DNA of 64,000 nt from assembly GCA_049719955.1 (NCBI GenBank), contig JBNARC010000004.1, forward strand, positions 16,782-80,781, read 5' to 3'. Numbering within the stretch: the stretch's first letter is position 1; each line of letters opens with the position of its first letter. The notes under the pieces are model-generated. The model worked only from the letters and a program-made list of their open reading frames with translations. It ran no database searches and was not told the origin of the DNA. This stretch comes from Moorellales bacterium. Lineage in GTDB: Bacteria > Bacillota > DSM-521 > Neomoorellales > SLTJ01. Positions 11,180 through 29,201 of this stretch are shown piece after piece. A program made the position numbers and the translations under genes.

Positions 11180-11204
11180 TCTAAGTAAATCTTCGGGTAT
11201 TGGA

Positions 11205-11550: not shown

Positions 11551-11970
11551 ATGCGTTGGATGCGGAGGCAACTTAACCGCGCCCGTCGTGACCGGGGTTT
11601 CACGCTCATTGAGTTGATGGTGGTTATAATCATTATCGGCATCTTGGCTGCTATTGTCCTGCCGAACTACTTGGACTTGGGAGAGAAGGCCAAGAAGGGT
11701 CGGGCCAAAGGGGAGCTGAAGGCCCTGGGTGCGGCAGTCGGGCTTTATCGTGCGGATAAGGGTGTGTGGCCGGAGGATACCGACCTGGAAGGCAACCTCG
11801 AGGACTATGGTTTTAGCGAGCGGCCTGACGATCCATGGGGAAAGGAATACAAGTGGGATAAGAACAATAAGTACATCTACAGCCTAGGTCCTAACGGGGA
11901 ATGGAATAGCTACGGTGGGGATGACATTTATTACGATGCTAATAAGCAGAAATTCGGACCCAATATCTAG
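11551..11970 (+). CDS. pilA: major type IV pilin (GspG/PulG-like pseudopilin fold)
   Basis: ATG 11551 follows TAAGGAGG. The prepilin leader 'MRWMRRQLNRARRDRG|FTLIELMVVIIIIGILAAIVLPNY' is present, and the C-terminal 'DPWGKEYKW...GPNGEW...GGDDIYY' is T2SS-G-like. Confidence 0.9.
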   Translation: MRWMRRQLNRARRDRGFTLIELMVVIIIIGILAAIVLPNYLDLGEKAKKGRAKGELKALGAAVGLYRADKGVWPEDTDLEGNLEDYGFSERPDDPWGKEYKWDKNNKYIYSLGPNGEWNSYGGDDIYYDANKQKFGPNI

Positions 11971-12028
11971 CCTAGGCGGGGTTGGTGTCAGGCCGACGAG
12001 AGCCTAAGCGGTTCGGGGAGATTGGACG

Positions 12029-12781
12029 GTGGAACAGGGGCTGGTTGTTATACTCGGCCTGGCAGTAGGAAGTTTCCTCAATGTGTGCATCTATCGTCTT
12101 CCCAGGGGGGAATCATTGGCGTTCCCCCCTTCTCGTTGTCCGACCTGTGGACACCGGTTGGCGCCGCAGGATTTGGTGCCGGTGCTGAGCTACCTATGGC
12201 TCAGGGGGCGCTGCCGCTACTGCGGGGAGAGGATCTCCCCTCTGTATCCCCTGGTGGAGCTGGGTGCCGGCGGCCTTTTTGGGCTACTCTACAGCATGTA
12301 TGGGCTTTCACCCGAGCTGATAAGCCGGCTAGTGCTGGCCTCGGGACTCCTGGTGGCGGCAGTGATTGACCTGCGCCATTACCGGATTCCCAACCAGTTG
12401 GTGGTGTTTCTGACTGTCGCCGCGCCCCTCCTTAACCTGTGGACCCGCGAACTCCCCTGGTGGCAGGTGCTGGCCGGCGCGGCGGTGGGGGCGGGGATTC
12501 TGGGGGCGTTGGCCGTCTTGAGCCGGGGCGGCATGGGCGAGGGAGATGTGAAGTTGGCCGCGGCTACTGGCCTCTACCTGGGTCCGGCGGGCCAGGTCCT
12601 GGCCATATTTCTGGCCGCGGCCGCGGGGGCCATGGTGGGGGGAGTGCTGATCGCGAGCGGCCGCAAGAAGCGCCGGGATCCTATTCCTTTTGCGCCCTTT
12701 TTGGGCATCGGTAGCTTCATTACTTACGTGTGGGGAGCGGACTTGTGGCGGCTTTATCTTTCCTGGGCGGGCCTAATGTAG
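12029..12781 (+). CDS. pilD: prepilin peptidase / N-methyltransferase (A24 family)
   Basis: Contains 'GSFLNVCIYRLP', the zinc motif 'CPTCGHRL...CRYCGERI', and the catalytic regions 'AAVIDLRHYRIPN' and 'GMGEGDVKLAAATG'. Confidence 0.9.
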   Translation: MEQGLVVILGLAVGSFLNVCIYRLPRGESLAFPPSRCPTCGHRLAPQDLVPVLSYLWLRGRCRYCGERISPLYPLVELGAGGLFGLLYSMYGLSPELISRLVLASGLLVAAVIDLRHYRIPNQLVVFLTVAAPLLNLWTRELPWWQVLAGAAVGAGILGALAVLSRGGMGEGDVKLAAATGLYLGPAGQVLAIFLAAAAGAMVGGVLIASGRKKRRDPIPFAPFLGIGSFITYVWGADLWRLYLSWAGLM

Positions 12782-12848
12782 CCGGATGCGCCTTTTAATC
12801 AAGGGAGCCGGGCAATGGGGCCATCGATGCGGGAGCGGTGTGGTATAG

Positions 12849-14993: not shown

Positions 14994-15002
14994 GGGAGGA
15001 AT

Positions 15003-15506
15003 ATGCTGAAGATCAAGCGCCCTTGGCCTAGTGTGTCTGGATGTCCTGGTTTTACCCTTTTGGAGGTCCTAATGGTGGCGGTAATTTTGGGGATTCTGGC
15101 TGCCACCGTGGCCCCCCAGGGTGCGGCGCTAGTACAGTCCTACCGGCTAAAGGAGGCGGCGGAAATGGTGGCCGCCGATCTCCGGCTGGTACAGCAGCGG
15201 GCGGTGGCCGGTGAGGGCCGGAACTGGCGCCTAATCTTCAACCTGGGAGGCAACCGGAGCCGATACCTGGTACAGCAGGGTACCGGGGGAGTGAACCTGA
15301 TCCGGGACTTGCCTAAAGGCATAGTTTTCGACGGAGACATCAAGGTTGGGGCAGCGTACAATGAGGTGTGGTTTGACTTAGAGGGTACGCCTAACTCCGG
15401 GGTGGTGGACATCGTCATCCCCCTGAAGGACGAGCAGAGCGGCCGTTATCTTTTTGTCCAGGTTGGCGGGACTACCGGTCGAGTATCGGTTACCGAGCGC
15501 CTGTAG
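15003..15506 (+). CDS. minor pilin (GspH/FimT-like), prepilin-type N-terminal cleavage/methylation domain
   Basis: The leader 'PG|FTLLEVLMVAVILGILAATVAP' is present, in pilus-operon context. Confidence 0.8.
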   Translation: MLKIKRPWPSVSGCPGFTLLEVLMVAVILGILAATVAPQGAALVQSYRLKEAAEMVAADLRLVQQRAVAGEGRNWRLIFNLGGNRSRYLVQQGTGGVNLIRDLPKGIVFDGDIKVGAAYNEVWFDLEGTPNSGVVDIVIPLKDEQSGRYLFVQVGGTTGRVSVTERL

Positions 15507-15543
15507 GGTGGCGCTCGGTTAGGAGTCCAGGAGCGGATGGCTA

Positions 15544-15993
15544 ATGGGGCGAACCGGGCCAAGGAAGAGGGTACGCGAGGATGGTTTTACTCTTATAGAA
15601 GTACTTGCGGCCCTGGCCATTCTGGCCGTAGCCCTGATACCACTTATGGATGTATTCGGGCAGAGCCTAAGACTGGGAGAGCAGGCAGGCGAGGAAAGTG
15701 TTGTAACCTATCTGGCGCAGGAAAAGATGGAGCAGTATCTCTTCTGGTTCCGCCAGCACCGAGGCCAGGGTCTGGAACTTCGGGCCAAGCTCGAGGCGGA
15801 TCACGTTGACCTCGATCCTGACGACGGCGAGGATCCCGAGTTTCGGCCTTTAGACGATTTCCCCGGCTACGCCTATCGGGCCTGGTTGGCTCCGGAATAC
15901 GGTAACGGCGAAGCCAGGCAGTTGCGGCGGCTTAAGGTGGAAGTTAGGGGGCCAGAGGGCCGGCCGGTCGTGCTAACCACTTTGGTTTGGTGA
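15544..15993 (+). CDS. minor pilin (PilV/GspI-like)
   Basis: The leader 'REDG|FTLIEVLAALAILAVALIPL' is present. Length is 149 aa. Confidence 0.8.
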   Translation: MGRTGPRKRVREDGFTLIEVLAALAILAVALIPLMDVFGQSLRLGEQAGEESVVTYLAQEKMEQYLFWFRQHRGQGLELRAKLEADHVDLDPDDGEDPEFRPLDDFPGYAYRAWLAPEYGNGEARQLRRLKVEVRGPEGRPVVLTTLVW

Positions 15994-16006
15994 GGACTAA
16001 GGGACC

Positions 16007-16588
16007 ATGGTGAATCATCAGTCCCTGAGAAGGTCGCCTGGAGGACAGAGGCGGTTGCGCCTTGGCGACGGCGGGTTTACGCTTCTGGAGGCCCTCTTGG
16101 CTGCCATGTTGATGGTAACCGTCGTGGCCTCGGCCTACGTCCTGCTTGAGCAAGGGGCGCTCTCGTGGCAGGTGCAGGCCGACCGGCGGGAGGCCCGGGA
16201 GAACTTGCGCGTGGCCCTGGCCAGAATAGGTAAGTACGCCCGGGAAGCCACGGGAGTAAAGGTAGAGGCCAACGGAGCCGCGCTCACCCTTTCCTGGTAC
16301 GATCTGAGTAACGCTCAGTGGAAGCAAATCCGCTACCAGGTAATGCGGGGCGCCCTTTGGGAAGGGCGCCGCAACAAGTCCGGTCCGGAATGGGTATCTA
16401 CGCCCAACCCTTCGACCGACTACGTCTGGAAGGTGTTGGCCGAGCGCATAGTGGAAGCCCGGTTTACGACCGAGGGAAACGGAGACGCCAGGCTGGTGAG
16501 CGTGGGGCTGGTCGCGAGGGACCGTCGCGGAGTTGAGCAGGCGGTGAGTACCAAGTTAATGGCGCGGGTGGTCTCGGTGAATCCGTAG
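16007..16588 (+). CDS. minor pilin (PilW/GspJ-like)
   Basis: The leader 'GDGG|FTLLEALLAAMLMVTVV' is present. Length is 193 aa. Confidence 0.8.
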   Translation: MVNHQSLRRSPGGQRRLRLGDGGFTLLEALLAAMLMVTVVASAYVLLEQGALSWQVQADRREARENLRVALARIGKYAREATGVKVEANGAALTLSWYDLSNAQWKQIRYQVMRGALWEGRRNKSGPEWVSTPNPSTDYVWKVLAERIVEARFTTEGNGDARLVSVGLVARDRRGVEQAVSTKLMARVVSVNP

Positions 16589-16638
16589 CCCTTCGGGACA
16601 AGCCTGGAAAGCATCTGCCGGACAAGGGGCGGGCTTCG

Positions 16639-17862
16639 GTGTGGGGTGATGAACGCCTGAGCAGCGCAGCGAGTCGGCCCTGCTGGATTGAGGATCAGGG
16701 CGTGACCCTGATGACCGTCCTCGTGGTTCTAACCGTATTATTGGGGTTGGGCCTGGCGGCCTTGGCTCTTACCCTGATCCATAAAGATATCAGTCGCACG
16801 GAGGTGCGAAGCCTGCAGGCCTTCTACGCCGCCGAAGCGGGCATCCAGGCGGCCCTGGCCCAATTAGCGGCCAGCCTTGAATGGCCGGGGTATGACCCTT
16901 CTAGAGGGATAGGCAGCTTACCGGCGATTGCCGATCAACTGGAGGGTGCCCGGATCAAGGAGATTCTGTTGACGCCTCAGGGAGAAGTGTTGCAGGTTGA
17001 GGCCCGGGGCGAGGCTGGTGACCTCACCCGCCGGGTGGCGGCTTTGCTTCGGAAGCCTGCCTGGGCTTTCGGTTTGATTCTTTACCAGGCCACGGCACCG
17101 GTGAGCATCGGAGGTAACTCTTACCTGCGAGGCACTTTTATCTTTGCCGGCGACGTTACCATCGGGTCGTCCGTGCAGGTGGGGGATTCCCAGGCCAGAG
17201 ACGGGTGGATTATCTCCGGTGGCAATGTAGTCAACAAGGGAGTGGTTTACGGCGGGGTGAAAGCTCGGGGAGTGGTTGACAATTCTCAGGGAACGATCGT
17301 GGGGGTTCTGGAACAGCGGGCGGAAGTCTTCATTCCTCCGGTTACGGCTCCAGATCTACAGTATTACTACATCCGCGCCGACGAAAGGTTGGCCGAACCG
17401 GATGGCGAGGTTGAGTTGACGGGTGAGGCCCTGCAGGCTTTCATCAATGCCGGAAAACGTATTGTTTACGTGGACGGAGATCTGGTTTTGGACGAAAAGG
17501 GTAACCGCAACATCGTTTACGAGGGACAAATCGCCCTCGTGGCCAGCGGTAGTATAGAAATAAGAGCAGATGTGGTCAGGGGGCCCGGAACCCAAGAGAC
17601 TAGCGTCTTGGCCTTAATCGCTGGTGGAAACATTATAGTGCACAACCAGGAAGTGGAAGCTCTGCTATGGGCGGGCGGTGAGCTTTGTACCTACGGTAAT
17701 CCCTCCATACGCGGAGCGGCGGTAGCGGCCACCTTAGAGGCAAGCGGTGGGTGTAACCTCACCTATGACCTTATCCTTACCAGTCAGTTTTGGAATAGCT
17801 TTCTCTTGCCGCCGGACGAGTTCGGCCTTAAGATGGTACGCTGGTGGGCGAAGGGGTCGTAG
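16639..17862 (+). CDS. large PilX-like minor pilin / putative tip protein with a Gly/Val-rich beta-solenoid-like C-terminal region
   Basis: The N-terminus 'GVTLMTVLVVLTVLLGLGLAALALTLIH...AFYAAEAGIQAAL' resembles a PilX_N-type anchor and lacks Glu5. The C-terminal 250 aa contain repetitive G-x-V/I strands. Confidence 0.7.
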   Translation: MWGDERLSSAASRPCWIEDQGVTLMTVLVVLTVLLGLGLAALALTLIHKDISRTEVRSLQAFYAAEAGIQAALAQLAASLEWPGYDPSRGIGSLPAIADQLEGARIKEILLTPQGEVLQVEARGEAGDLTRRVAALLRKPAWAFGLILYQATAPVSIGGNSYLRGTFIFAGDVTIGSSVQVGDSQARDGWIISGGNVVNKGVVYGGVKARGVVDNSQGTIVGVLEQRAEVFIPPVTAPDLQYYYIRADERLAEPDGEVELTGEALQAFINAGKRIVYVDGDLVLDEKGNRNIVYEGQIALVASGSIEIRADVVRGPGTQETSVLALIAGGNIIVHNQEVEALLWAGGELCTYGNPSIRGAAVAATLEASGGCNLTYDLILTSQFWNSFLLPPDEFGLKMVRWWAKGS

Positions 17863-17873
17863 GGGGGGGCCAT

Positions 17874-18881
17874 TTGATTCCCTTTGTTCACTTTCGAAAG
17901 AAACGATATATTGGCTTTGACCTGGGAGCCAGGGGGGTGCGGGCGGTAGAGGTGCAGGGCCGTGCCGGAAGTTGGCAGGTGAGTTCCGCCGTGGTTCACC
18001 CCTTACCGCCGGGGGCGGTCCGAGATGGGATGGTATTGGTGCCGGATAAGGTGGTCGCTGCCCTAGATAAACTTGCGGCCGAGCAAGGGTGGAAAGGTCG
18101 CAGGGTATTTGCCTCCGTCGGTGGTAGCCGTCTCATTACCCGGCATTTACGTCTCCCCCTCATGCCCCGGGAGGAACTGGATAAGGCCGTACGTTACGAG
18201 GCCGAGCAGTACCTGCCTGTGGGGACAGCGGAACTCAGCACGGATTTCGCCGTGCTGGGGAAGGAGCAAGATGGGGAAGGGGAGAAATTGGAGGTACTGC
18301 TGGCCGCTGTTCCCCTGGATACGGCGCGCACCTACGCCGAGTTGTTCGAGGCCGCCGGGCTATCCTTGATGGCGCTGGACATCGTGCCCCTGGCCTGGCA
18401 GCGGGTGTTGGTCGCCGCGCTGGGCGATTCCCTGGCCGATCAGGCGGTAGGGGTGCTGGATCTGGGATATTCCTGTACCCACATTGTGATACTCTATGGC
18501 TCCCGGGTGGAACTGTGCCGCTCGTTACCGCAGGGGTGGGGTGTGGCAGAGGCGAGTTCAGCGGCTTACGAGGCCGCGGCGGCCATGGCTCCGCCTGTGC
18601 CTCCGGCGCCGTCTGCGGGGACGGCCCTGGAGGAGGTCTTAGGAAGCATCTTGAACGAGATGCGTCGGTCGGTGGACTTTTTTCGTGTCCAGAGGCGGTC
18701 GGCAGTTTGGGGGAGTCTCTACCTTGGCGGTGCGTTAGGCGGGTCTTCTGAGGTATGCGCTTTGCTTGAGGCGGAGATCGGGGTGCCAGTTAAGCCCTTT
18801 TGGCCCTTAGCGGAGGGTCTGGTAGCCGATCCAGAGTTGGTGGTAGCGCTTGGAACCGCCCTGCGGCAGGTGATACCCTAG
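17874..18881 (+). CDS. pilM: type IV pilus assembly protein PilM (actin-like ATPase fold)
   Basis: Contains 'KKRYIGFDLGARGVRAVEV' and 'YEAEQYLP'. TTG 17874 follows a G-rich Shine-Dalgarno sequence. The track ORF starts at GTG 17844, overlapping the previous gene; either start is possible. Confidence 0.85.
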   Translation: MIPFVHFRKKRYIGFDLGARGVRAVEVQGRAGSWQVSSAVVHPLPPGAVRDGMVLVPDKVVAALDKLAAEQGWKGRRVFASVGGSRLITRHLRLPLMPREELDKAVRYEAEQYLPVGTAELSTDFAVLGKEQDGEGEKLEVLLAAVPLDTARTYAELFEAAGLSLMALDIVPLAWQRVLVAALGDSLADQAVGVLDLGYSCTHIVILYGSRVELCRSLPQGWGVAEASSAAYEAAAAMAPPVPPAPSAGTALEEVLGSILNEMRRSVDFFRVQRRSAVWGSLYLGGALGGSSEVCALLEAEIGVPVKPFWPLAEGLVADPELVVALGTALRQVIP

Positions 18882-19423
18882 TGCCAGCGGTCAATCTTCT
18901 ACCTCTTGAGCTCCGACCTCCTTCCCAAGGTGTCTCCGGGCGCCGGTTGGCACTTGTGGCCGCGTGTCTGGCCGCAGCCGCGGTTACGGGCCTGGCAGCC
19001 GCCAGTTATTGGCGTCTGACCCGGGAGTTACAGGCGGTTACCGCGGCCAGGGTGGAGCTGGCAGAGGTGGCGGCGGAAGCCGAGGAGTTGGAACGGGAGT
19101 TGAGTCAGATCGAGCAGGAGCGGACGGCACTACAGGAGGTATGGCAGAAGCGTTTTTCGTGGTCGCGCTTCCTCTCGGATTTGTGGGCCAGCTTGCCCTC
19201 AGGGGTATGGCTGACCGATCTTTCGGTAAAGGGTTCGGAGCTAACCCTGCAGGGAGGTGCCGCCTCAGCCGGTAACGTAGCTCAATTCCTCCAACGGCTG
19301 GTGCTAGTCGCCGGGGTCCGGGCACCCCAGTTGGTTAAGTTGGAAGGTAACCCGGGGCTGAGATTTACCGTAAAGGCGACGCTGGAAAGGCCCTTGCTTC
19401 CGGAGCGAGGAGAAGGGGATTGA
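18881..19423 (+). CDS. pilN: type IV pilus assembly protein PilN
   Basis: GTG 18881 overlaps the pilM stop (TAGTG). The protein begins 'VNLLPLELRP', followed by a single TM helix and a coiled coil. Confidence 0.8.
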   Translation: MPAVNLLPLELRPPSQGVSGRRLALVAACLAAAAVTGLAAASYWRLTRELQAVTAARVELAEVAAEAEELERELSQIEQERTALQEVWQKRFSWSRFLSDLWASLPSGVWLTDLSVKGSELTLQGGAASAGNVAQFLQRLVLVAGVRAPQLVKLEGNPGLRFTVKATLERPLLPERGEGD

Positions 19424-20265
19424 CTCGAACGGCACGGGAGAAATATCTATTGGCTGCCCTTTGTGTGGTCCTCGGAACCGTGGCTTTTTACCGGCTAGGG
19501 GTGGGCATAGCGTGGCCTCGTTACCTAGAGCTCCGGGAGAGGCTGGTCACGGAAATCGAAACTCTGGCTCAAACCCGGCGTGAGGTCCAGCGTCTGCCCG
19601 CGCTTAAAGAGGAGGTTGCTGGAGCCAGGATTAAATTACGAGAGTTGCGACAACCCTTCGAAGCGGTGGGGCGGGAAGGAGCCTTGACCTACCTTCTGCA
19701 TTTGCTGCCCGCGGGTGTGCAGCTCAGAGAATTGGTGCCGGAAACAGATGAAGATAAAGGCTATTATCGGGTTTCCCCGGTGCGCCTTAGGCTGGTTGGC
19801 CCTTTCCCCGAAGTACAGGTGTTTCTGGACAAGCTCGAGGCTCTCCCGGTTTACATTCGCGACTTGCGCATGGGCCCGGTCGAAGACGGATCGGGAATCG
19901 AAGTAGAGGTGAAACTGGATTTGTTCTTCCGGTCCGTGGCGCCTGCGGCGGCATCGTCGCGGCAGGTATTTGGGGTGGCCTTGAGAGACCCTTTTGCGGC
20001 CCCAATCGAAGCTGTGTCCACAGAGCCTCGGGCGGCCGTTACGGGCGGTACCACAGGAGCGCAGACTGAAGTGAGGAAAGTACACGGGCGAGTTCCGGAA
20101 GGCGGTGCCAGTGAGGCTGCGGCTGTAGTAGCCTCCCCAAGAGAGGTTTCGGACGGTCGTCGGCAGGAGGAGGAAGCCACAACACCGGAAGCGTCGTACG
20201 TCTGGCCTAAAGGAGAGGGGCCGGACGCCCTCAACCGCCAGTACACCTTCCCGGTGCGGCGGTGA
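19420..20265 (+). CDS. pilO: PilO-like pilus assembly protein with an extended Ala/Glu-rich C-terminus
   Basis: The start overlaps the pilN stop (TTGA). It has an N-terminal TM helix, a coiled coil and a PilO-like core ('LELRERLVTEIETLAQTRREVQRLPALKEE'). Confidence 0.7.
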   Translation: MTRTAREKYLLAALCVVLGTVAFYRLGVGIAWPRYLELRERLVTEIETLAQTRREVQRLPALKEEVAGARIKLRELRQPFEAVGREGALTYLLHLLPAGVQLRELVPETDEDKGYYRVSPVRLRLVGPFPEVQVFLDKLEALPVYIRDLRMGPVEDGSGIEVEVKLDLFFRSVAPAAASSRQVFGVALRDPFAAPIEAVSTEPRAAVTGGTTGAQTEVRKVHGRVPEGGASEAAAVVASPREVSDGRRQEEEATTPEASYVWPKGEGPDALNRQYTFPVRR

Positions 20266-20298
20266 GAGACTCAGGCTAAAGGTAATGGAGGGCGGCAG

Positions 20299-21084
20299 AT
20301 GACCCGGGGTGGCGCGCTCTGGAAATGGTGGATGCTCGGGTTGGCGCTTTGGGCAGGGGTGGCCGTAGCGCCGGCCCTGGCCGGTACCAAATGGACCCCC
20401 GTCCGCGTCGCGGCGCTTTTCGGACCCTTGCGGGTGGTGGTTAACGGTCGGGATTGGCAGCCGGAAGTTAAGCCGTTCCTTCTCCAGGAGCGGGGCACGA
20501 TAATGGTCCCGCTGCGGGAACTGGCGACGGAGCTAGGGGTGCCGGTGCGCTGGGACCAGGCTACGGGCACGGTCTACGTCGGGTCTGCAGACGCGGCTGG
20601 GGGTTCGCCTTCCGGCGCGGGCTCCCCGGCGCCGGCCGCTTCCGGCTCCGCGTATGCGTGGCTGGAAGAACTGACGGTGCTCCGCAATATTGGCCCCTTT
20701 TACCAGCAGCCCCGGCGGAACTTCATGGTGGCGGCCCGACCCTTCAACCGGGGGGTGGCGGTGGAGCTGGACGGGAAAGAGGAGGCAGAAGTGGTAGTAG
20801 ACCTGGCCGGGCGCTACCAGAGCGCGGAAGGCTACCTGGGCATCGAGGACGCCACCTGCAACAGCCGGGGCGGAGCCACGGTGTCCTTTTATGCCGACGA
20901 CCGGTTGGTTTATACCTCCCCGTTGCTGAAGCCCTCTCAATACCCGTTTTTTGTGAGTAGCCGCCAGTTGGGAGGGTTAGCCGGGGTGAAACGATTGCGC
21001 GTACAGGTGCATTGGCAGGAAGTAGGGCTGGGGGACTACGACCGGGTGGTTGTGGTGTTGGCTCGTTTTCGCTTTTTCCGCTGA
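20299..21084 (+). CDS. secreted protein: copper-amine-oxidase-N-like domain plus NPCBM-like carbohydrate-binding domain
   Basis: A signal peptide 'WWMLGLALWAGVAVAPALA' is present. 'GTIMVPLRELATELGVPVRWDQATGTVYV' resembles Cu_amine_oxidN1. The C-terminal 'YLGIEDATCNSRGGATVSFYADDRLVYTSPLL' resembles NPCBM. Confidence 0.65.
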   Translation: MTRGGALWKWWMLGLALWAGVAVAPALAGTKWTPVRVAALFGPLRVVVNGRDWQPEVKPFLLQERGTIMVPLRELATELGVPVRWDQATGTVYVGSADAAGGSPSGAGSPAPAASGSAYAWLEELTVLRNIGPFYQQPRRNFMVAARPFNRGVAVELDGKEEAEVVVDLAGRYQSAEGYLGIEDATCNSRGGATVSFYADDRLVYTSPLLKPSQYPFFVSSRQLGGLAGVKRLRVQVHWQEVGLGDYDRVVVVLARFRFFR

Positions 21085-21102
21085 GAGGAGAGCGTAAGCG
21101 CT

Positions 21103-22416
21103 ATGCCTAACTGGCCTGGGTTGGTGGCGGCAGGGGCGGCGGCCGGGGTGGCGGTGGCTCTGTACCGGCAGAACCGGAGACTGCGGCGGGCCCGCTCGGC
21201 TTTGGAGCAAAAGGTCCGGGAACTGGCGGAGCGTAACCGGCTTCTGGAGGGGCTAGCGATAACCGACGGGCTTACCGGACTTTACAACCGCCGCTACTTC
21301 GAGCAGCGCCTGGCGGAGGAGATAAGCCGCTGCCAGCGGTACGAATCGGTGCTGGCGCTGGCCATGATCGACGTGGACTACTTCAAGTGCTACAACGACG
21401 CCTTGGGACACGTAGAGGGCGACCGGGTGCTGCAGGATCTGGGCGGCCTGCTCCGGGAGAGCGTGCGGGAAGGAGACGTGGTGGCCCGCTACGGCGGGGA
21501 TGAGTTTGCCGTCATCTTCGTAGAAATGGATTCTTTGGTGGCGCAGAAGGCCGGCGAGCGCATCCGGGAGAACATCGAGGCCTACGCCGCCAGGCTGGTA
21601 GGCTCCGGCTCGGGCGCGGCGGAAGAGCTGTTGACCGTTTCCGTGGGCATTGCCAGCTTTCCCAAGGACGCCGAGACCGCCGAAGAACTCATCAGCAAGG
21701 CCGACCAGGCCCTGTACCGGGCCAAGGAGGGCGGGAAGAACCGGGTGGTGGTCTACCAGTCTCCCCTGGAGGAGCTGGCCCAGGGGACGGAGATACCGGA
21801 GCAAGAAGAGGAAGAGGGCGACCTTGCCCTCCACCTCATGCGGGCCATACGCTCCATCCTCCTTTCCATCAACGCCCGCGACCGCTACACCTACGGCCAT
21901 TCCCAGCGCACCACCCGTTACGCCGAGGCCCTTTCGCGCCGCCTGGGGCTGGCTCCGGAGCGCGTGCGGCTGGTCAAGCGCGCCGCCCTGCTGCACGACG
22001 TGGGCAAGGTCAACATCGATAAAGAGATCCTTATTAAGTCTAAGCCCCTTTCTGCGGAAGAGAGGGAGATCATCAGGCGCCATGCCCTCATGAGCGCGCA
22101 GATAATCGAGCCGGTTAAGGAGCTGGCCCGGGTAATTCCCATTGTGGAGCAGCACCACGAGCGCTACGACGGCAAGGGCTACCCCCGAGGTCTGGCCGGT
22201 GAAGAGATTAGCCTTGAGGCCCGCATCCTGGCCATTGCCGACGCTTATGATGCCATGCGCTCCCCGCGGCCCTATCGCGACGCCCTAAGCTTTGCCGAGG
22301 CGGTAGCGGAACTGCGCCAGGGGGCGGGCACGCAGTTCGACCCTCACCTGGTAGAAGCGTTCATAGAAGTGATTCGGGAGCTGGAGATGGGGGCTGCCGG
22401 TCGGCCTCGCGCCTGA
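21103..22416 (+). CDS. membrane-anchored diguanylate cyclase (GGDEF) fused to an HD-GYP phosphodiesterase domain
   Basis: Contains 'DGLTGLYNRRYF' and 'RYGGDEFAVIF', with an RxxD I-site ('REGD') five residues upstream of GGDEF. The HD-GYP part has 'LLHDVGK' and 'HHERYDGKGYPRGL'. Confidence 0.9.
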   Translation: MPNWPGLVAAGAAAGVAVALYRQNRRLRRARSALEQKVRELAERNRLLEGLAITDGLTGLYNRRYFEQRLAEEISRCQRYESVLALAMIDVDYFKCYNDALGHVEGDRVLQDLGGLLRESVREGDVVARYGGDEFAVIFVEMDSLVAQKAGERIRENIEAYAARLVGSGSGAAEELLTVSVGIASFPKDAETAEELISKADQALYRAKEGGKNRVVVYQSPLEELAQGTEIPEQEEEEGDLALHLMRAIRSILLSINARDRYTYGHSQRTTRYAEALSRRLGLAPERVRLVKRAALLHDVGKVNIDKEILIKSKPLSAEEREIIRRHALMSAQIIEPVKELARVIPIVEQHHERYDGKGYPRGLAGEEISLEARILAIADAYDAMRSPRPYRDALSFAEAVAELRQGAGTQFDPHLVEAFIEVIRELEMGAAGRPRA

Positions 22417-22562
22417 CCGCCGGAAGGAAAACTTTTGGGCATCGGGAATAATAGTAGGGAAGTCCGGCAAAGGCGCCCGCTTGGGCGGCGGCCGGAAGAG
22501 GAATAGCTTACGACCACCGGCAAGGCAAACCGAGGGTGTGCCGGGCGGAAGGGGGGCTGTAG

Positions 22563-24041
22563 TTGGCGCCGGGTCTGGACAGGGAAGAGCTGGCAAGGGT
22601 TCTGGAGATCGCCTTGGCACGGGGAGCGGATTTCGCCGAAGTCTTCCTGGAGGAGCGGCAGGTTTGCGCCCTTACCTGTGAGGACGACCGGATCGAGCGG
22701 GTGACCACCGGCCGGGAAGTGGGGGCCGGGGTGCGGGTTATTAGCGGGGAGAGTACCGCCTACGGCTACACCAATCATCTCGAGCTAGACCGCCTGACGG
22801 ATCTGGCGCGCACCGTGGCCGACACCGCGCGCCTGAGGGGGAGCGGGGAGGTGGTGCTGGACTTGCGCTCCGTTTCCGCTCCTTACCTTTTGGAGATACA
22901 TAGGCCGCCCGAGCAGGTGCCGGTATCCGATCGGGTGGCGCTGGTGCGGCGGGCCAATGCCGCCGCCCGAGGGGAAGATCCGCGGATTAAGCAGGTGCTG
23001 GTCAATTATGCCGACACCCGGCAGCGGGTACGCATTGCCAACACCGAGGGGGACTACGTAGAGGACGAACGGGTGCGGGTCCGCCTGGCGGTGCAGGCGG
23101 TGGCGGCGGCCCAGGGGCGGTTGCAGACCGGCTACGAAGCCGTAGGGGGATTTATCGGCCTGGAGCTGTTCGAGCAGCAGCCGCCCGAGGAAGTGGCCCG
23201 CACCGCGGCCCGGCGGAGCCTCCTGATGCTGGAGGCCAGGCCCGCGCCCACCGGCCGGATGACCGTGGTGATGGCGGCGGAGGCGGGAGGCACCATGGTA
23301 CACGAGGCCTGCGGTCACGGGCTGGAAGCCGACCTGGTGCAAAAAGGTCTCTCCGTCTACGCCGGCCGTTTGGGGCAGGTGGTAGCCTCGCCCCTGATCA
23401 CGGTGATCGACGACGCCACCCTGCCCGGCCGGTTCGGTTCTTACCGTTTCGACGACGAGGGCACGCCCGGGCAGAAGACAGTGCTGATCGAGAAGGGCGT
23501 GCTTTGCAGTTACATGTACGATCGTCTTACCGCCCGCCGGGAGGGACGGCGTTCCACCGGCAACGGGCGAAGAGAGTCCTACCAATACCGGCCCCTACCC
23601 CGGATGCGCAACACCTACATCGCCCCCGGGGAGCACGACCCGGAGGAAATCATCCGCCGCACCGAGCGCGGCCTGCTGGTGAAGAAGATGGGCGGCGGCC
23701 AGGTGAACACCACCAACGGCGACTTCGTGTTCGAGGTGGCCGAAGGTTACCTTATCGAGGGGGGTCGGGTGACGGCGCCGGTGCGGGGAGCCACCCTTAC
23801 CGGCAACGGTCCGGAGGTACTGCGGGAGGTAGACATGGTGGGAAGTGATCTGGGGTTCAGCATTGGGGTATGCGGAAAGAACGGCCAGGGAGTCCCGGTG
23901 AGCGATGCCCAGCCCACCATTCGCATTCCTTCCCTGGTGGTAGGGGGAACGGCCTGTGAGGCCGAAGCGGAGGGCAAGACCGGGGACCGGGCCGGCCGGT
24001 ACGCCCGGGGGAGCGGGTGGCGAGGGGGCATGCGGCGGTGA
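22563..24041 (+). CDS. tldD: TldD-family metalloprotease
   Basis: Contains 'HEACGHGLEAD' (HExxxH), 'GGGQVNTTNGDFVF' and 'IPSLVVGG'. A ~30-aa Arg/Gly-rich tail overlaps the pmbA start. Confidence 0.88.
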   Translation: MAPGLDREELARVLEIALARGADFAEVFLEERQVCALTCEDDRIERVTTGREVGAGVRVISGESTAYGYTNHLELDRLTDLARTVADTARLRGSGEVVLDLRSVSAPYLLEIHRPPEQVPVSDRVALVRRANAAARGEDPRIKQVLVNYADTRQRVRIANTEGDYVEDERVRVRLAVQAVAAAQGRLQTGYEAVGGFIGLELFEQQPPEEVARTAARRSLLMLEARPAPTGRMTVVMAAEAGGTMVHEACGHGLEADLVQKGLSVYAGRLGQVVASPLITVIDDATLPGRFGSYRFDDEGTPGQKTVLIEKGVLCSYMYDRLTARREGRRSTGNGRRESYQYRPLPRMRNTYIAPGEHDPEEIIRRTERGLLVKKMGGGQVNTTNGDFVFEVAEGYLIEGGRVTAPVRGATLTGNGPEVLREVDMVGSDLGFSIGVCGKNGQGVPVSDAQPTIRIPSLVVGGTACEAEAEGKTGDRAGRYARGSGWRGGMRR

Positions 24042-25387
24042 GCGAGGATTTCGGAGCGGAAAAAGAGCTGGTTTGGGATCTGGTGGTGCGGGCCCGGCGC
24101 CAGGGGGCCTGGGCGGCGGAGGCCTATTTTTCGGAAGAAGAAGAGACCGCAATCGAGGTGCGGGACCAGAAGGTAGAGGATCTGAAAATCGCCCGGGAGC
24201 AGGGAGTGGGTCTCAGGGTGCTGGTGGGGCGGCGGCCCGGGTTCGCCTACACCACCGACTTCTCGCCCGAAAGCCTGAGCCGCCTGGTGGAGGAAGCACT
24301 GGCCAATGCCAACGGTGCGGACGAGGATCCCCACTACTCTCTGCCGGGCCCGGCGGTCTACGCCCAGGACTTGGACCTCTACGACCCGCGTCTGGAGGAA
24401 GTGCCGCCGGAGCAAAAGCTGGAGCTGGTCCTGCGCCTGGAGCAAGCGGGGCGGGACCTCGACCCGCGGGTGCGCCTGACCGAAAGCGCCAGCTACGAGG
24501 AGAGCCGCTACCGGGTGGTGCTGGCTAACTCCAACCACCTGCTGGCCGCTTACCGCGGCGCCCACTGCGGCCTGAGCGCGGTTTTCGTGGCGGTGCAGAA
24601 CGGCGATCAAGAAACCGGCTTTGCCTTCCAGTATCGAACCAAGTACGCGGAGTTGGACCCGGAAGCCGTGGGCCGGCAGGCGGCTTCCCGGGCGGTAGCC
24701 ATGCTGGGAGCCGGGCCGATTTCCTCCCGGCGAATTCCGGTGGTCATGGATCCCTACGTGGCCATCAACTTCCTGGGCTTGCTCATTCCCTCCTTCAGCG
24801 CCGAGGCGGTGCAGAAGGGCCGCTCGCTTTTGGCCGACAAGCGGGGTCAGAAGCTGGCCGGCGAGACGGTCACGGTGGTGGACGACGGACTGTTACGCGG
24901 CGGGCTGGCTTCCGCTCCCTTTGACGGCGAAGGCGTGCCCTGCCGTCGTAAGCTGTTACTGCGGGAAGGGGTGGTGGAGACTTTTCTCCACAACTGCTAC
25001 ACCGCCTCCCGCGCCGGGGAGGAGTCTACCGGTAACGCCGCCCGGGGGTCCTTCCGCAGCACGCCGGGGGTGGGCACTACCAACTGCTACCTCCAGCCGG
25101 GGGATCAGGACCCGGAGGCGCTGATCAAAAGCGTAGGCCACGGCCTCTACCTCACCGAAGTGCTGGGGATGCATACCGCCAATCCGGTGTCCGGCGACTT
25201 TTCCGTGGGGGCGGCCGGCCGGCTGATCCAGAACGGAGAACTGAGCGCGCCGGTGAGGGGCATCACCGTGGCCGGGAACGTCTTGGAGTGGCTGGCGGCC
25301 ATCGAGGCCTGCGGCCGGGATCTGACCTTTCTCGGCAGCACCGGCGCGCCCACGGTGCTGGTGGGCCGGCTCACGGTGAGCGGGTGA
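24038..25387 (+). CDS. pmbA: PmbA/TldE-family metalloprotease partner
   Basis: GTG 24038 overlaps the tldD stop (GTGA). Contains 'NPVSGDFSVGAAG' and 'APTVLVGRLTVSG'. Confidence 0.88.
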   Translation: MSEDFGAEKELVWDLVVRARRQGAWAAEAYFSEEEETAIEVRDQKVEDLKIAREQGVGLRVLVGRRPGFAYTTDFSPESLSRLVEEALANANGADEDPHYSLPGPAVYAQDLDLYDPRLEEVPPEQKLELVLRLEQAGRDLDPRVRLTESASYEESRYRVVLANSNHLLAAYRGAHCGLSAVFVAVQNGDQETGFAFQYRTKYAELDPEAVGRQAASRAVAMLGAGPISSRRIPVVMDPYVAINFLGLLIPSFSAEAVQKGRSLLADKRGQKLAGETVTVVDDGLLRGGLASAPFDGEGVPCRRKLLLREGVVETFLHNCYTASRAGEESTGNAARGSFRSTPGVGTTNCYLQPGDQDPEALIKSVGHGLYLTEVLGMHTANPVSGDFSVGAAGRLIQNGELSAPVRGITVAGNVLEWLAAIEACGRDLTFLGSTGAPTVLVGRLTVSG

Positions 25388-25414
25388 GGGGAGGGACGGA
25401 AGCTGCGTATTCTA

Positions 25415-25849
25415 GTGCTGCACGGCCCGAACCTCAACCTCCTGGGCGAGCGGGAGCCGGGGGTATACGGGACGGTCACCCTGGAGGAGATAAACCGCCG
25501 GCTGGAGAAGCGGGCTAAAGACCTGGGAGTGGAGCTGGAGATCTTCCAGTCAAACCACGAGGGAGCGCTGATTGACCGGCTGCACGAGGCGCGTCACCGG
25601 GTGCAGGCGGTGATCGTCAATCCCGGCGCCCTTACCCATTACAGCCTGGCCCTGCACGACGCCCTGAGGGCGGTTAACCTCCCGGCGGTGGAGGTGCATC
25701 TTAGCAACATCTATGCCCGGGAGGAATTCCGCCGCCATTCGGTGGTAGCACCGGCGGTTTCCGGCCAGATAAGCGGCTTTGGAGTCATGAGTTACCTGTT
25801 GGCTTTGGAGGCGGCGGTGTATCTCGCGGGCGGCCGGGTCCAATCCTGA
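25415..25849 (+). CDS. aroQ: type II 3-dehydroquinate dehydratase
   Basis: Contains 'LHGPNLNLLGEREPGVYG', 'QSNHEGALID', 'NPGALTHYS' and 'VEVHLSNI'. The conserved N-terminus 'RILVLHGPN' extends upstream of GTG 25415, where only CTG 25403 or ATT 25409 are in frame. Confidence 0.88.
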   Translation: MLHGPNLNLLGEREPGVYGTVTLEEINRRLEKRAKDLGVELEIFQSNHEGALIDRLHEARHRVQAVIVNPGALTHYSLALHDALRAVNLPAVEVHLSNIYAREEFRRHSVVAPAVSGQISGFGVMSYLLALEAAVYLAGGRVQS

Positions 25850-25884
25850 GGGGCCGTTCCCACCGGCACGGGGGAGGGAGTTCT

Positions 25885-26979
25885 TTGCCCGCCGATATCG
25901 GCAAGGAAACCTACCGTCTCCGCCAGGTCCGGCTCCTGGCGGAGCTGGAAGGCTCGGGCGCGGAAGCCTTATTGATCACCCGCCCGGAGAACTGCCTCTA
26001 CCTCACCGGGTTTTCCGGCGAAGGCACGGTGGTGGTATCGGCTTCCGGCACCTGGTTGCTGACCGACTTCCGTTACCTGGAGGTCGCGCAGGCGGAGGTA
26101 GAGGCCGCCCAACCGGTTCGGATAGAAGGCGGGTGGACGCAGACGGTTAAGAGGTTGGTCACTGACCAGGGGTGGGGCCGGCTAGCCTTTGAGGCCGAAC
26201 ATCTGACCTATGGCCGGTACTGTGAACTGGCTGAGGCCCTAGCTCCGGTTCTCCTGGTTCCCACCGCGGGCCTGGTGGAGCGGTTACGCCGGGTGAAGGA
26301 CGAGGCCGAGTTAGAAAGGCTGCGCCACGCCGCCTGGATCACCGATACAGCCTTCTCGTATGTACTGGAGCGGATACGCCCCGGTATAACCGAGAAGGAA
26401 CTAGCCTTAGAACTAGAGTATTACTTGGGCCGAAACGGCTCGGAGGGAGTTTCCTTTCCCACCATTGTGGCTGCCGGGCCCAGAAGCGCCCGTCCTCATG
26501 CCGTACCCCGGGAGGAGCCGGTCCGGGAGGGCGATCTCCTTCTCTTGGATTTTGGCGCGGTCTGGGAAGGCTATCACGCCGATTTAACCCGCACCGTGGC
26601 GGTGGGGCGGGCGGGAGCCAAGGAGCGGGAAGTTTACGCGGTGGTGAGGGAGGCTCAGGAGGAGGCCCTGGCCGCCATCCGGGCCGGGCGAACCGTCGCG
26701 GAGATCGATTCCCTGGCCCGGGAGGTGATAGCGCGGGCTGGGTACGGCGAATACTTCGGTCACCGTCTGGGCCACGGTGTGGGTCTGGCGGTACACGAGG
26801 AGCCGGCGCTGGGCGGGGAGGAGACGGTTTTGGAGCCGGGCATGGTGGTGACCGTGGAGCCGGGGATCTACCTTCCCGGCTGGGGCGGCGTGCGCATAGA
26901 GGACTTGGTGGTGGTGACCCGGGACGGGTGCGAGATCCTATCGCGGGCGCCTAAGGATTTTTTGATTGTAGGAAGGTGA
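25885..26979 (+). CDS. pepQ: Xaa-Pro aminopeptidase (M24B)
   Basis: Contains '[16 protein letters not shown]', '[15 protein letters not shown]' and '[17 protein letters not shown]'. Confidence 0.88.
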
Positions 26980-26983
26980 GAGC

Positions 26984-27541
26984 ATGATTTCTACCAACGA
27001 CTTTCGTACCGGGGTTAAAATCGAGGTGGACGGAGAGCTTTATGCAGTAGTAGAATTCCAGCACGTAAAGCCGGGTAAGGGTGCGGCCTTCGTGCGCACC
27101 AAGCTGCGAAACCTGCGCACCGGCGCGGTAATTGAGCGCACCTTCCGAGCCGGCGAAAAGGTGCCTCAGGTGCGGGTGGAGCGCCGGGAGATGCAGTACC
27201 TCTACAACGACGGCGAGAACTACGTCTTCATGGATACCTCCAGTTTCGAGCAGCTCAGCCTGCCGCGGGAGAAGCTGGAGGAGGCAGCGCAGTTCCTAAA
27301 GGACGATATGGTCGTGTACGTGTTGCTGTATGAAGGTGAGACCATAGGCGTGGAGTTGCCGAACTTCGTAGAGCTTAAGGTGGTACGTACCGAGCCGGGA
27401 GTGAGGGGCGATACGGTGAGCGGCGGTAGCAAGCCGGCCACTTTGGAGACCGGGGCGGTAGTGCAGGTGCCCCTGTTTATCGAGGAAGGGGACGTAATCC
27501 GCATCGATACGCGGACGGGAGAGTATATCGAGCGGGTATAG
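26984..27541 (+). CDS. efp: elongation factor P
   Basis: Begins '[20 protein letters not shown]...[20 protein letters not shown]'. Length is 185 aa. Confidence 0.95.
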
Positions 27542-27587
27542 GGGGTACATATACCTAGGGAATGACCTAGGGGGTACCGCGGACGAG

Positions 27588-28016
27588 ATGGCATCAACGG
27601 AACTAAAAGAGAAGATGGCCTATCTCCAGGGTATGGTTTCCGGGCTGGGTTTAGATACCGCCACCCGGGAGGGGCAAATTCTGAAAGAGATGTTGAGCCT
27701 TTTGGAAAGCCTGGTCGGAGTGGTGAGCGAGCTGCAAAAGGCGCAGGAGCAAACCGAGGAATACCTGGAGAGCGTGGATGAGGATTTGTTCCGGCTGGAA
27801 GACGAGGTCTACGGCCCGGAGCCGGAAGAAGAGGGGGAGCGGGAATACGTCGAGGTGGAGTGCCCGCAGTGTCGGGAGGTGGTCTGCTTCGAGACGGACC
27901 TCCTGGACGGCGAGGGCGAGCTAGAGGTGAGCTGCCCCCAGTGCGGAACGGTGGTCTATACCACCCGGACCGGTAGCCCGACGGACGGAGATCAAAGCCT
28001 AGAGCAACAGTCTTAG
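27588..28016 (+). CDS. acidic coiled-coil / zinc-ribbon protein of unknown function
   Basis: The 142-aa protein has an N-terminal helical region and a C-terminal 'CPQC...(24 aa)...CPQCG' ribbon. It occupies the conserved position between efp and spoIIIAA in Clostridia. Confidence 0.7.
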   Translation: MASTELKEKMAYLQGMVSGLGLDTATREGQILKEMLSLLESLVGVVSELQKAQEQTEEYLESVDEDLFRLEDEVYGPEPEEEGEREYVEVECPQCREVVCFETDLLDGEGELEVSCPQCGTVVYTTRTGSPTDGDQSLEQQS

Positions 28017-28064
28017 ACGTCTAGGCAGCGCGAAAACTTAGCTGGCCCGGGACATGTATATTAA

Positions 28065-28104
28065 GGCGATCGGAAGCTACGCAGCTGGTCGCCTTTTTGT
28101 TTTC
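28065..28104 (+). terminator. intrinsic terminator downstream of the zinc-ribbon gene
   Basis: The stem pairs GGCGATC (28065-28071) with GGTCGCC (28087-28093), with an inner AGCT/AGCT pairing, and is followed by TTTTTGTTTT. Confidence 0.6.
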
Positions 28105-28163
28105 TTGCCTACCGGGCATATCCTTCTCCGCCCGGTAATATCTATCTAGCGGTGGAGGGGAAA

Positions 28164-29201
28164 ATGTTGGCAGCGATCGGCGTTTGGGAACGGTTTCAAC
28201 GGGAGATCTTACCTTGGTTGGCCCCTTCGGTCCGGGAGCCGCTACGGCGGCTGGCGCCGGAGTTGGTTTCCGAGTTGGAAGAAGTAAGATTGCGGGCCCA
28301 AAAGCCGTTAGTGGTGGTGACGGCCGCGGCCATCCGCTTCGTTACTCCCGAGGGCCACCCCACTGACGAGGTACGGCGGGCCTACACGGTAACCGGCGAG
28401 GACTTACGGCGCACCCTGGAGGCCGTAACCCGCAGTTCCTGGTACGCCTTGACCGAGCAGTTGCGGGAAGGCTATCTCACCCTGCCGGGGGGGCACCGCC
28501 TGGGGCTGGCAGGAGAGGCGGTACCGGGCGAAGCCCGGGTGGCGGGTTTGCGGCATGTGGCCAGCCTCAACCTGCGCCTGGCCCGAGAGGTGCCCGGTTG
28601 CAGCCTGGGTATCTTGCCCTACCTGTGGGACCGGGCCGGCGGCCTTCCTTGGCATACCCTCGTACTCTCCCCTCCCCGGGCGGGTAAGACCACCTTCCTG
28701 AGGGATGTGGTGCGCCACTTTAGCTACGGCGTTCCCCAGTTTGGCATACCCCCCTCCAGCGTGGGGCTGGTGGACGAGCGGGGCGAGATTGCCGCCTGCT
28801 TCGAGGGCGTGCCCCAAAACGATGTGGGGCCCTGCACGGACGTACTGTCCGGTTGGCCCAAGGCCCAAGGGATGCTGGTGCTCTTGCGGGCCCTCTCACC
28901 CCGGGTGATCGCCACCGACGAAATGGGCGGCCCGGAGGACTTGGCCGCCCTGTACGAGGTGCTGAACGCCGGGGTAAAGGTAGTGGCCACGGTTCACGCC
29001 TCCGATCTGGAGGAGCTCAGGCGGCGTCCTGCCTGGCGGCGAATCTTAGGGCGCGGCGGGTTTGAGCGCCTGGTAGTGTTGAGCCGACGCTTGGGGCCGG
29101 GCACGGTGGAGGCGGTCTTAGACGGTTCGGGGCAACTTCTGTTTCGGGGCCCCTGGAGGGCGGTCGGGATTTGGTCTGCCGCCGCCAAAAGGAGGGCCTA
29201 G
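28164..29201 (+). CDS. spoIIIAA: stage III sporulation protein AA (ATPase)
   Basis: ATG 28164 follows GGAGG. Contains Walker A 'SPPRAGKTTFLRDV' and 'IATDEMG'. The track ORF begins at GTG 28152. Confidence 0.9.
   Translation: MLAAIGVWERFQREILPWLAPSVREPLRRLAPELVSELEEVRLRAQKPLVVVTAAAIRFVTPEGHPTDEVRRAYTVTGEDLRRTLEAVTRSSWYALTEQLREGYLTLPGGHRLGLAGEAVPGEARVAGLRHVASLNLRLAREVPGCSLGILPYLWDRAGGLPWHTLVLSPPRAGKTTFLRDVVRHFSYGVPQFGIPPSSVGLVDERGEIAACFEGVPQNDVGPCTDVLSGWPKAQGMLVLLRALSPRVIATDEMGGPEDLAALYEVLNAGVKVVATVHASDLEELRRRPAWRRILGRGGFERLVVLSRRLGPGTVEAVLDGSGQLLFRGPWRAVGIWSAAAKRRA

Follow-up and report, generated by a model that had tools for sequence, protein, structure and literature searches.

A short GGDEF/HD-GYP tandem protein encoded behind the type IV pilus genes of a Moorellales bacterium

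The 64,000-nucleotide stretch of Moorellales DNA analysed here (the window) carries a cluster of type IV pilus genes, followed on the same strand by a gene for a 437-residue protein that joins a GGDEF domain to an HD-GYP domain. To judge from its motifs, this short enzyme seems equipped for both the synthesis and the breakdown of c-di-GMP (cyclic diguanosine monophosphate). The explanation that we consider best is that the tandem protein is a minimal bifunctional enzyme of c-di-GMP turnover, dimeric, product-inhibited and co-expressed with the pilus genes, and we give this explanation about even chances. An earlier note, made from the DNA letters, had described a GGDEF/HD-GYP hybrid reading frame at this position; its coordinates proved exact, and both domains are matched by sequence profiles. 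The features of the gene and its product are as follows.

21103-22416, + strand: coding sequence of the 437-residue GGDEF/HD-GYP tandem protein, with an ATG start (list of open reading frames, sequence reading; Pfam and NCBIfam matches)
21085-21090, + strand: Shine-Dalgarno-like GAGGAG, 12 nucleotides 5' of the ATG (sequence reading)
21112-21165, + strand: residues 4-21, an uncharged, Ala/Gly-rich hydrophobic segment (WPGLVAAGAAAGVAVALY) followed by an Arg cluster (Kyte-Doolittle; alignment A1)
21166-21261, + strand: residues 22-53, a four-heptad coiled-coil stalk leading into the GGDEF domain (AlphaFold2 helix, heptads, alignment)
21256-21744, + strand: GGDEF domain, residues 52-214 (Pfam PF00990, E 5.2e-49; WspR alignment)
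21466-21477, + strand: primary inhibitory site (I-site), R122-E-G-D125 (sequence reading; aligned to WspR R242xxD245)
21493-21507, + strand: active site (A-site), G131-G-D-E-F135 (sequence reading, WspR alignment)
21754-21867, + strand: residues 218-255, an acidic, partly disordered inter-domain linker and the first HD-GYP helix (AlphaFold2 confidence; ratio of nonsynonymous to synonymous substitution rates, dN/dS)
21868-22350, + strand: HD-GYP domain, residues 256-416, assigned to the binuclear subclass by Tyr262 (Pfam PF13487, E 5.9e-43; alignments to 5z7c, 4mcw and 4r8z)
21994-21999, + strand: H298-D299 of the HD motif, LLH298D299VGK (sequence reading, structure-chain alignments)
22153-22185, + strand: H351-H-E-R-Y-D-G-K-G-Y-P361, i.e., HHExxDGxGYP (sequence reading, structure-chain alignments)

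Catalytic domains and N-terminal stalk

The GGDEF domain scores 166.5 bits against its Pfam profile (cut-off 23.8) and 179.6 bits against TIGR00254 (cut-off 37.4), and the NCBIfam search agrees with Pfam on both domains of the protein. When aligned to WspR (3bre), the domain is seen to retain the metal-binding segment MIDVDYFK, with D90, D92 and K95, as well as the guanine-specifying pair N98 and D107, and R129 and K208. The catalytic and GTP-binding residues D90, K95, N98, D107, R129, G131GDEF135 and K208 are invariant in alignment A1 of the protein and its relatives, as are R122 and D125 of the primary I-site. The PleD counterparts of the metal- and GTP-binding residues we take to be D327, K332, N335, D344, R366 and K442. 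Five residues separate the I-site from the A-site; that is, the intact RYGGDEF site and the RxxD motif just ahead of it, both read in the earlier note, are borne out by the WspR alignment. A further arginine, R79, aligns with R198 of the secondary I-site of WspR. By these motifs the cyclase is predicted to be of the product-inhibited type, with the primary and the secondary I-site intact.

Hypr GGDEF enzymes, which synthesize cGAMP (3',3'-cyclic GMP-AMP), carry Ser in place of Asp at the position of PleD D344. The corresponding residue here, D107, is Asp, and is kept in all orthologues; thus, the cyclase is predicted to be a c-di-GMP synthase and not a Hypr-type cGAMP synthase. A cGAMP reading had been prompted by the best PDB match of the protein, V-cGAP3, and by variant riboswitches of the GGC type found in relatives. 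For the synthase it is ruled out by D107, and the riboswitch in the window scores as standard c-di-GMP-I.

The HD-GYP domain matches PF13487 (HD_5) with 147 bits (cut-off 27.2) over profile positions 7-170 of 170, the GYP subdomain included. In alignments with PmGH (4mcw), V-cGAP3 (5z7c) and PA4781 (4r8z), at E values of 1e-31 to 1e-39, it shares the HD motif, the HHExxDGxGYP motif and the Asp metal ligands of these proteins, namely through H266, H298, D299, K302, H327, H351, H352, D380 and G359YP361. The intact HD (LLHDVGK) and GYP signatures claimed earlier are therefore real, with one refinement: the third-metal ligand of PmGH, E185, is replaced by Tyr262. The same replacement is seen in V-cGAP3, PA4781 also lacks the Glu, and the Tyr is nearly invariant in the 120 closest homologues. 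This position decides between a trinuclear and a binuclear site, and with it the hydrolysis of pGpG (bioRxiv 10.1101/2021.11.05.467447; PMC4159591). The acidic residue that marks the trinuclear subclass of PmGH and TM0186, which hydrolyses all the way to GMP, being absent, the domain is assigned to the binuclear subclass, whose members tend to halt at pGpG (same sources); its predicted endpoint of hydrolysis is thus the linear dinucleotide. The HD-GYP enzymes studied so far lose activity once either Fe(II) ion is oxidized (bioRxiv 10.1101/2021.11.05.467447). The preference of the domain for c-di-GMP or cGAMP cannot be read from its sequence.

No PAS, GAF, REC, HAMP or Cache domain was detectable in the protein in Pfam and NCBIfam searches. 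An AlphaFold2 monomer model, built on 121 sequences, has a mean predicted local distance difference test score (pLDDT) of 89; in it, a long helix (residues 5-53) leads into the GGDEF fold, which a disordered acidic stretch (residues 229-236, pLDDT <50) separates from the all-helical HD-GYP fold. There is no room in the model for a hidden domain. Profile searches and model thus agree with the earlier observation that no PAS, GAF or receiver domain is visible. A longer N-terminus or a frameshifted upstream sensor was considered and ruled out, since the reading frame begins at the first start codon after the stop and the gene for an NPCBM protein, whose stop codon ends at 21084, lies upstream. 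This conserved gene fills the upstream DNA, and the short N-terminus is therefore genuine rather than the product of a mis-called start. An antisense reading frame at 21253-22158 (301 residues), evidence for which was neither looked for nor met with, was taken as an artefact of high GC content.

The N-terminal helix is unbroken from residue 5 to residue 53, with pLDDT >88. Its first part, residues 4-21, is followed by six Arg, and is a probable, if marginal, membrane anchor: the best 19-residue Kyte-Doolittle mean is 1.28 (<1.0 in the orthologue P0003; here and below, P and L numbers denote homologous proteins and loci), as compared with the usual threshold of 1.6 for a transmembrane helix. 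Its second part has a heptad pattern, with Leu at positions 27, 34, 41 and 48 and with R31, V38, N45 and A52 at the alternate core positions, Asn45 occupying an 'a' position. Among known structures, the model comes closest to an engineered fusion of the GCN4 zipper to the WspR GGDEF domain (3i5c), followed by the coiled-coil cyclases DgcB (6ttr) and SiaD (7e6g). Taken together, the heptads and the modelled helix suggest that the protein dimerizes. Of the transmembrane helix and coiled coil proposed in the earlier note, the coiled coil holds up, while the helix is less certain at a hydropathy of 1.28.

A common family and a shortened member

Proteins of this architecture are abundant. A database search retrieved at least 6,686 of them at E<=1e-20 among 8,000 candidates scored, the closest being P0001 (99% identity), a protein named 'HD-GYP domain-containing protein [Moorellales bacterium]' from a Moorellales metagenome-assembled genome (MAG). 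GGDEF and HD_5 are present in all of the best 120 matches, several of which are named 'bifunctional diguanylate cyclase/phosphohydrolase' by NCBI, and the combination has been on record since 1999, from the first account of HD-GYP onwards (bioRxiv 10.1101/2021.11.05.467447; PMC6205966). Tandems from Clostridia, Chloroflexota and Planctomycetota have the same domain order and motifs, with 40-58% identity over both domains to hundreds of them. The architecture is widespread and has a database name of its own, which makes the protein a tidy example rather than a discovery; its novelty had been overstated. In a motif census of the best 120 homologues, the A-site, I-site, HD and GYP motifs are all kept in 91, which argues that both activities are used in the family. 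Sequence and structure searches of the PDB returned no chain that spans both a GGDEF and an HD-GYP domain.

What sets the protein apart is its size. The usual relative is 550-720 residues long, and most tandems carry a multi-transmembrane, PAS, GAF or HAMP input at the N-terminus, whereas the protein in question has only one hydrophobic helix and a stalk, i.e., 51 residues, before its GGDEF domain. Among the 114 homologues with a locatable GGDEF start, assessed by motif and hydropathy counts, this region measures 150-250 residues in 72, nearly all with 2-6 hydrophobic segments, and 250-400 residues in a further 26, with PAS, GAF or HAMP domains. It is shorter than 70 residues in only eight, three of which form the protein's own clade, with several of the others lying on contigs of about 1.5 kb. 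A metagenome scan with the clade-specific N-terminus yielded one additional short-form member, L090 (98% identity, on a 2.3-kb contig), the other matches being unrelated GGDEF proteins. The short form is thus seen only in P0001-P0003 and L090, which are closely related lineages.

The nearest longer relatives, P0004-P0006 (50-56% identity), align without gaps from their last hydrophobic helix via the stalk into the GGDEF domain, and the approximately 170 residues that precede this last helix are absent from the short protein. In alignment A1, residues 4-21 stand opposite the last transmembrane helix of P0004-P0006, of which they would be a remnant. P0004-P0006, P0017 and P0056 have N-terminal regions of about 170-210 residues with several hydrophobic segments, whose matches to 6TM_PilS (PF25323) are weak and borderline, namely 31.8 bits for P0056 and 26.9 for P0017 (gathering score 27), and E ~0.02 for P0004 and P0006. 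No such N-terminal six-transmembrane (6TM) region is found in the short protein. On sequence comparison, then, it is a truncated derivative of a family with a multi-transmembrane, PilS-like 6TM region ahead of GGDEF and HD-GYP, of which only the last hydrophobic helix and the stalk are left. Because the membrane region that precedes them in the longer relatives is missing, its lack of a sensor is a secondary loss.

The pilus locus and its conservation

The cluster reads, along the + strand, pilB, pilT, pilC, a c-di-GMP-I riboswitch, pilA, a prepilin peptidase gene, a Wzy_C/TPR gene, minor pilins, pilM, pilN, pilO, the NPCBM gene and the tandem gene. The elements that matter here are the following.

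7079-8782, + strand: PilB ATPase with two N-terminal MshEN motifs (Pfam T2SSE and MshEN matches; translation reading)
11209-11298, + strand: c-di-GMP-I riboswitch aptamer, about 250 nucleotides 5' of pilA (Rfam RF01051, 81.1 bits)
11551-11970, + strand: pilA (reading frame)
17844-20265, + strand: pilM, pilN and pilO (Pfam matches)
20299-21084, + strand: gene for a secreted protein with Cu_amine_oxidN1 and NPCBM domains (Pfam matches; synteny in L001, L003, L004 and L005)

From pilA onward, listed reading frames of at least 150 residues overlap or are separated by gaps of 9-67 nucleotides, and the stretch 15506-16007 contains no frame of that length. The gaps around the NPCBM gene measure 33 nucleotides on the side of pilO and 18 on the side of the tandem gene. 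Downstream of the latter, a 146-nucleotide gap is followed by tldD/pmbA, pepP, efp and spoIIIA; the + strand run of pilus genes ends at the tandem gene, as the earlier note had stated. That note had also pointed to a riboswitch before pilA and an MshEN domain in PilB, and both were recovered, the former by its Rfam match. The N-terminus of PilB (window 7079-7260) contains two consecutive intact MshEN-type motifs of 24 residues, RLGELLLEAGLITSEQLDKALAEQ and RLGKVLIRQGLVKEQDIINVLEFQ, ahead of the Pfam MshEN region at residues 60-147. A pattern scan for promoters and terminators over 11000-23000 gave counts not above the shuffled expectation, and is uninformative on operon boundaries.

The order pilMNO-NPCBM-tandem gene recurs unchanged around P0002 (~85% identity), as seen in two assemblies, and around P0003 (~77%), as seen in two samples; L001, from the 85%-identity relative, has a riboswitch at the same position. 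When the window was compared with the orthologues in L001 and L003, at dS ~0.8-1.0, dN/dS was 0.07-0.13 for the GGDEF domain and 0.06-0.09 for the HD-GYP domain; residues 1-51 gave 0.13-0.27, and the linker gave the highest values, 0.22-0.32. Strong purifying selection acts on both catalytic domains, and the N-terminal helix is maintained as well. The identity of the tandem protein across these loci (86% and 78%) is higher than that of PilM, PilN or PilO. Over a wider range, its linkage to pilus genes is kept at 77-99% identity, loosely at 58%, and is gone at 50-52%.

As a background for this linkage, we took 80 distant loci (33-47% identity) from a search of genome contigs, in which the best identity among the matches listed was 47%. 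A homologue of PilT, PilB, PilC or PilD lies within 10 kb in six of the 80, five from Dehalococcoidia and one from Pirellulales. This exceeds a chance rate that we ourselves estimate at about 1%, albeit with few independent events. Dehalococcoidia are a second, distant lineage in which a GGDEF-HD-GYP gene is linked to a pilus ATPase gene. Their multi-transmembrane tandem protein (41-43% identity) is followed by a gene of 254 or 255 codons and then, about 1.2 kb downstream, by a PilT homologue (L010 9249-13394, L011 1276-5522, L012 9251-13395, L014 4184-11119); in L014, divergent pilB and pilC genes precede the tandem homologue.

Several further features of these loci were noted. The best riboswitch match in L001 (2093-2179, + strand) is to the variant c-di-GMP-I-GGC (RF03167, 69.8 bits), as opposed to the standard c-di-GMP-I of the window; to our knowledge, the ligand specificity of this variant is not settled. 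Between the tandem orthologue and tldD, L001 has a gene of 150 codons resembling DUF134/sigma-70 region 4 (11336-11788), where the window has the 146-nucleotide non-coding gap (22417-22562). Upstream of the pilus block of the window lie the shikimate-pathway genes aroE, aroC and aroB (3114-6975), and downstream of it tldD/pmbA, pepP, efp and spoIIIA (22563-29201); in L001, pmbA is followed by aroQ, which gives the impression of pilus genes inserted into an aro neighbourhood. The secreted-looking Cu_amine_oxidN1 and NPCBM/NEW2 protein, which is no standard pilus component, is encoded between pilO and the tandem gene in the window, L001, L003 and L004, and after pilO in L005. Within the pilus cluster, at 12849-14993 (+ strand), the window encodes a 714-residue protein of the Wzy_C type (O-antigen ligase-like) that has TPR repeats at its C-terminus; L003 and L004 have this protein too, L001 lacks it, and it may serve to glycosylate pilin. 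In MAG GCA_004347685.1 (L005 5550-18058), pilMNO and the NPCBM gene lead directly into a cluster of multihaem cytochrome, TPR and NHL genes that includes P0005 and a PAS-GGDEF-EAL gene, together with a c-di-GMP-I-GGC riboswitch (L005 15113-15206, - strand) on the strand opposite to the called genes. This cluster may point to extracellular electron transfer being controlled by cyclic dinucleotides beside pili. Elsewhere in the window (38736-39346, + strand) there is a full-length ornate large extremophilic (OLE) RNA, at 495 bits, which fits an extremophilic or anaerobic member of the Bacillota.

Proposed mechanism and competing readings

In the mechanism that we propose, the N-terminal hydrophobic segment probably tethers the protein to the membrane, and the four-heptad parallel coiled coil would make it a constitutive dimer. 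Dimerization would pair two canonical GGDEF domains, such that c-di-GMP is made from GTP without an upstream signal, and binding of c-di-GMP at the primary RxxD site and the secondary R79 site would cap its synthesis. The binuclear HD-GYP domain would hydrolyse c-di-GMP, most likely only to pGpG. With both activities on one polypeptide, the enzyme may act neither as a pure source nor as a pure sink; rather, c-di-GMP could be clamped near an intrinsic set-point, since, on general reasoning about bifunctional enzymes, the output of a fused synthase and hydrolase tends to a set-point whatever the abundance of the enzyme. The balance might be shifted by the supply of GTP, by c-di-GMP itself acting via the I-site, and by the redox and metal state of the HD-GYP centre, which depends on Fe(II); no sensor domain would be needed. 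Since the gene is the 3'-most one of a packed run behind the riboswitch and pilA, the amount of enzyme made probably depends on that same c-di-GMP-responsive transcript; a riboswitch-led transcript reaching the gene would close a loop that feeds back on pilus expression and on PilB with its MshEN motifs. The earlier note had called the switch between synthesis and hydrolysis unexplained. This stands insofar as both sites look intact and no sensor is present; however, built-in routes, i.e., I-site inhibition and Fe(II) oxidation, are plausible, and SiaD sets a precedent for control by a partner.

Several observations weigh against this proposal. Our literature searches returned only passing mentions of GGDEF-HD-GYP tandems and no biochemically characterized one. 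In GGDEF-EAL tandems, one domain is often regulatory only even though the motifs look intact (PMC6205966), and a fused synthase and hydrolase lacking a switch would burn GTP. Anchoring is doubtful at a hydropathy below the customary threshold, and it is gene spacing from which co-transcription with the pilus genes is inferred. The link to pili, including a role as a local source or sink, is plausible from synteny within a narrow Moorellales-like lineage. Outside it, the 6TM-bearing P0005 (58%) is encoded 3.7 kb after the same pilMNO-NPCBM block, inside the cytochrome/TPR/NHL cluster; a cluster of this type also surrounds P0004 (56%, L088), whose contig is short; and P0008 and P0010 (50-52%) have exbBD/tonB, trpS and mutSL as neighbours.

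These neighbourhoods also favour the view, which we regard as somewhat unlikely, that the protein is a c-di-GMP enzyme for the cell as a whole, without special ties to the pilus machinery, and that its position behind the pilus genes is a lineage-specific accident of gene order. The confinement of the short form to a few related lineages fits this view, as do the 74 of the 80 distant loci that have no pilus genes within 10 kb and the position of the pilus block itself amid housekeeping genes (aro, tldD, efp, spoIIIA). However, the tight same-strand spacing with pilMNO is kept across lineages at the synonymous divergence given above, the cluster has two c-di-GMP receptors of its own, and pilus ATPase genes occur near the homologues of Dehalococcoidia and Pirellulales above the chance estimate.

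An unlikely alternative to the balanced turnover enzyme is a net phosphodiesterase, in which the GGDEF domain binds GTP or c-di-GMP through its A-site or I-site and serves as an allosteric gate; in a c-di-GMP-induced operon, this would amount to simple negative feedback. The comparison with bifunctional GGDEF-EAL proteins is pertinent, as these too combine opposing c-di-GMP activities on one polypeptide and raise the same question of balance (PMC6205966; PMC2952852). Several of them are gated in this manner, and such tandems are 'typically' active in one domain (PMC6205966). They differ from the present protein, however, in that its hydrolase has the unrelated, metal-dependent HD-GYP fold, and in that the characterized GGDEF-EAL switches have sensor domains or partners. 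Also consistent with a net phosphodiesterase, conservation is slightly higher in the HD-GYP than in the GGDEF domain, by dN/dS as well as by identity to the two orthologues (92% vs 90%, and 88% vs 80%), and the HD-GYP domain is kept in the 16 of 120 homologues that have lost the RxxD I-site spacing and in P0027, a Desulfovirgula protein with a degenerate A-site and no linkage to pilus genes. On the other hand, all the GGDEF catalytic and substrate residues that were checked are retained, and are invariant among orthologues; active cyclases (3i5c, 6ttr, 7e6g) are likewise built with a parallel coiled coil right ahead of GGDEF; and a kept I-site is typical of active cyclases.

Quite improbable, in our estimate, is the suggestion of the earlier note that a pilus component, such as PilM, PilN, PilO or a membrane-held pilin, binds the stalk or helix, so that the state of pilus assembly sets the balance. 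PilS, a sensor kinase, responds to pilin within the membrane, and the longer relatives have the 6TM_PilS-like matches described above; these are borderline, though, the domain in question is exactly the one lost here, and the relatives that bear it are mostly unlinked to pilus genes. The N-terminal half resembles SiaD (7e6g, TMt 0.69; NCBIfam NF038266, 162.8 bits over residues 22-215), another sensor-less protein in which a coiled-coil stalk runs directly into a GGDEF domain with an I-site. Purifying selection also acts on residues 1-51. SiaD of Pseudomonas aeruginosa is activated by its partner SiaC (PMC8457831). Yet SiaD lacks an HD-GYP domain, and its gene accompanies siaABC, whereas the neighbours here are pilus genes and tldD; no siaC-like gene is adjacent, and the score is far below the SiaD equivalog cut-off of 290 bits.

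Returning to the bifunctional turnover enzyme, one may extend it to a self-contained circuit, although we hold this to be speculative and doubtful. Here, the class I riboswitch would admit transcription as far as the last gene, and the fused enzyme, independently of its abundance, would draw cellular c-di-GMP to a fixed set-point for PilB and the riboswitch alike once the operon is on; the Fe(II) centre of the HD-GYP domain would be the only built-in sensor of redox state or O2 in an anaerobe, and the enzyme would have originated by deletion of a PilS-like intramembrane sensor. In Clostridioides difficile, the Cdi-2-4 c-di-GMP riboswitch of pilA1 allows read-through into downstream pilus genes (PMC6200980). 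Both are Gram-positive type IV pilus clusters with a c-di-GMP riboswitch before the major pilin gene, the riboswitch being of class II in C. difficile and of class I in the window. We know of no cyclase or phosphodiesterase encoded by the C. difficile pilus locus itself. The logic of the circuit is thus already known, and the added element is an operon that encodes its own turnover enzyme.

If the tandem protein is an ordinary cell-wide enzyme, nothing new follows beyond its annotation. Being close to the smallest natural form of the family, however, with a stalk, a cyclase and a hydrolase and no sensor to confound assays, and coming from a likely thermophilic Moorellales lineage, it would be a convenient model for how opposing activities are partitioned. 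A riboswitch, an MshEN-bearing PilB and a turnover enzyme in one operon would, in turn, make a compact system in which to study how c-di-GMP acts locally, and with feedback, on the type IV pili of Gram-positive bacteria.

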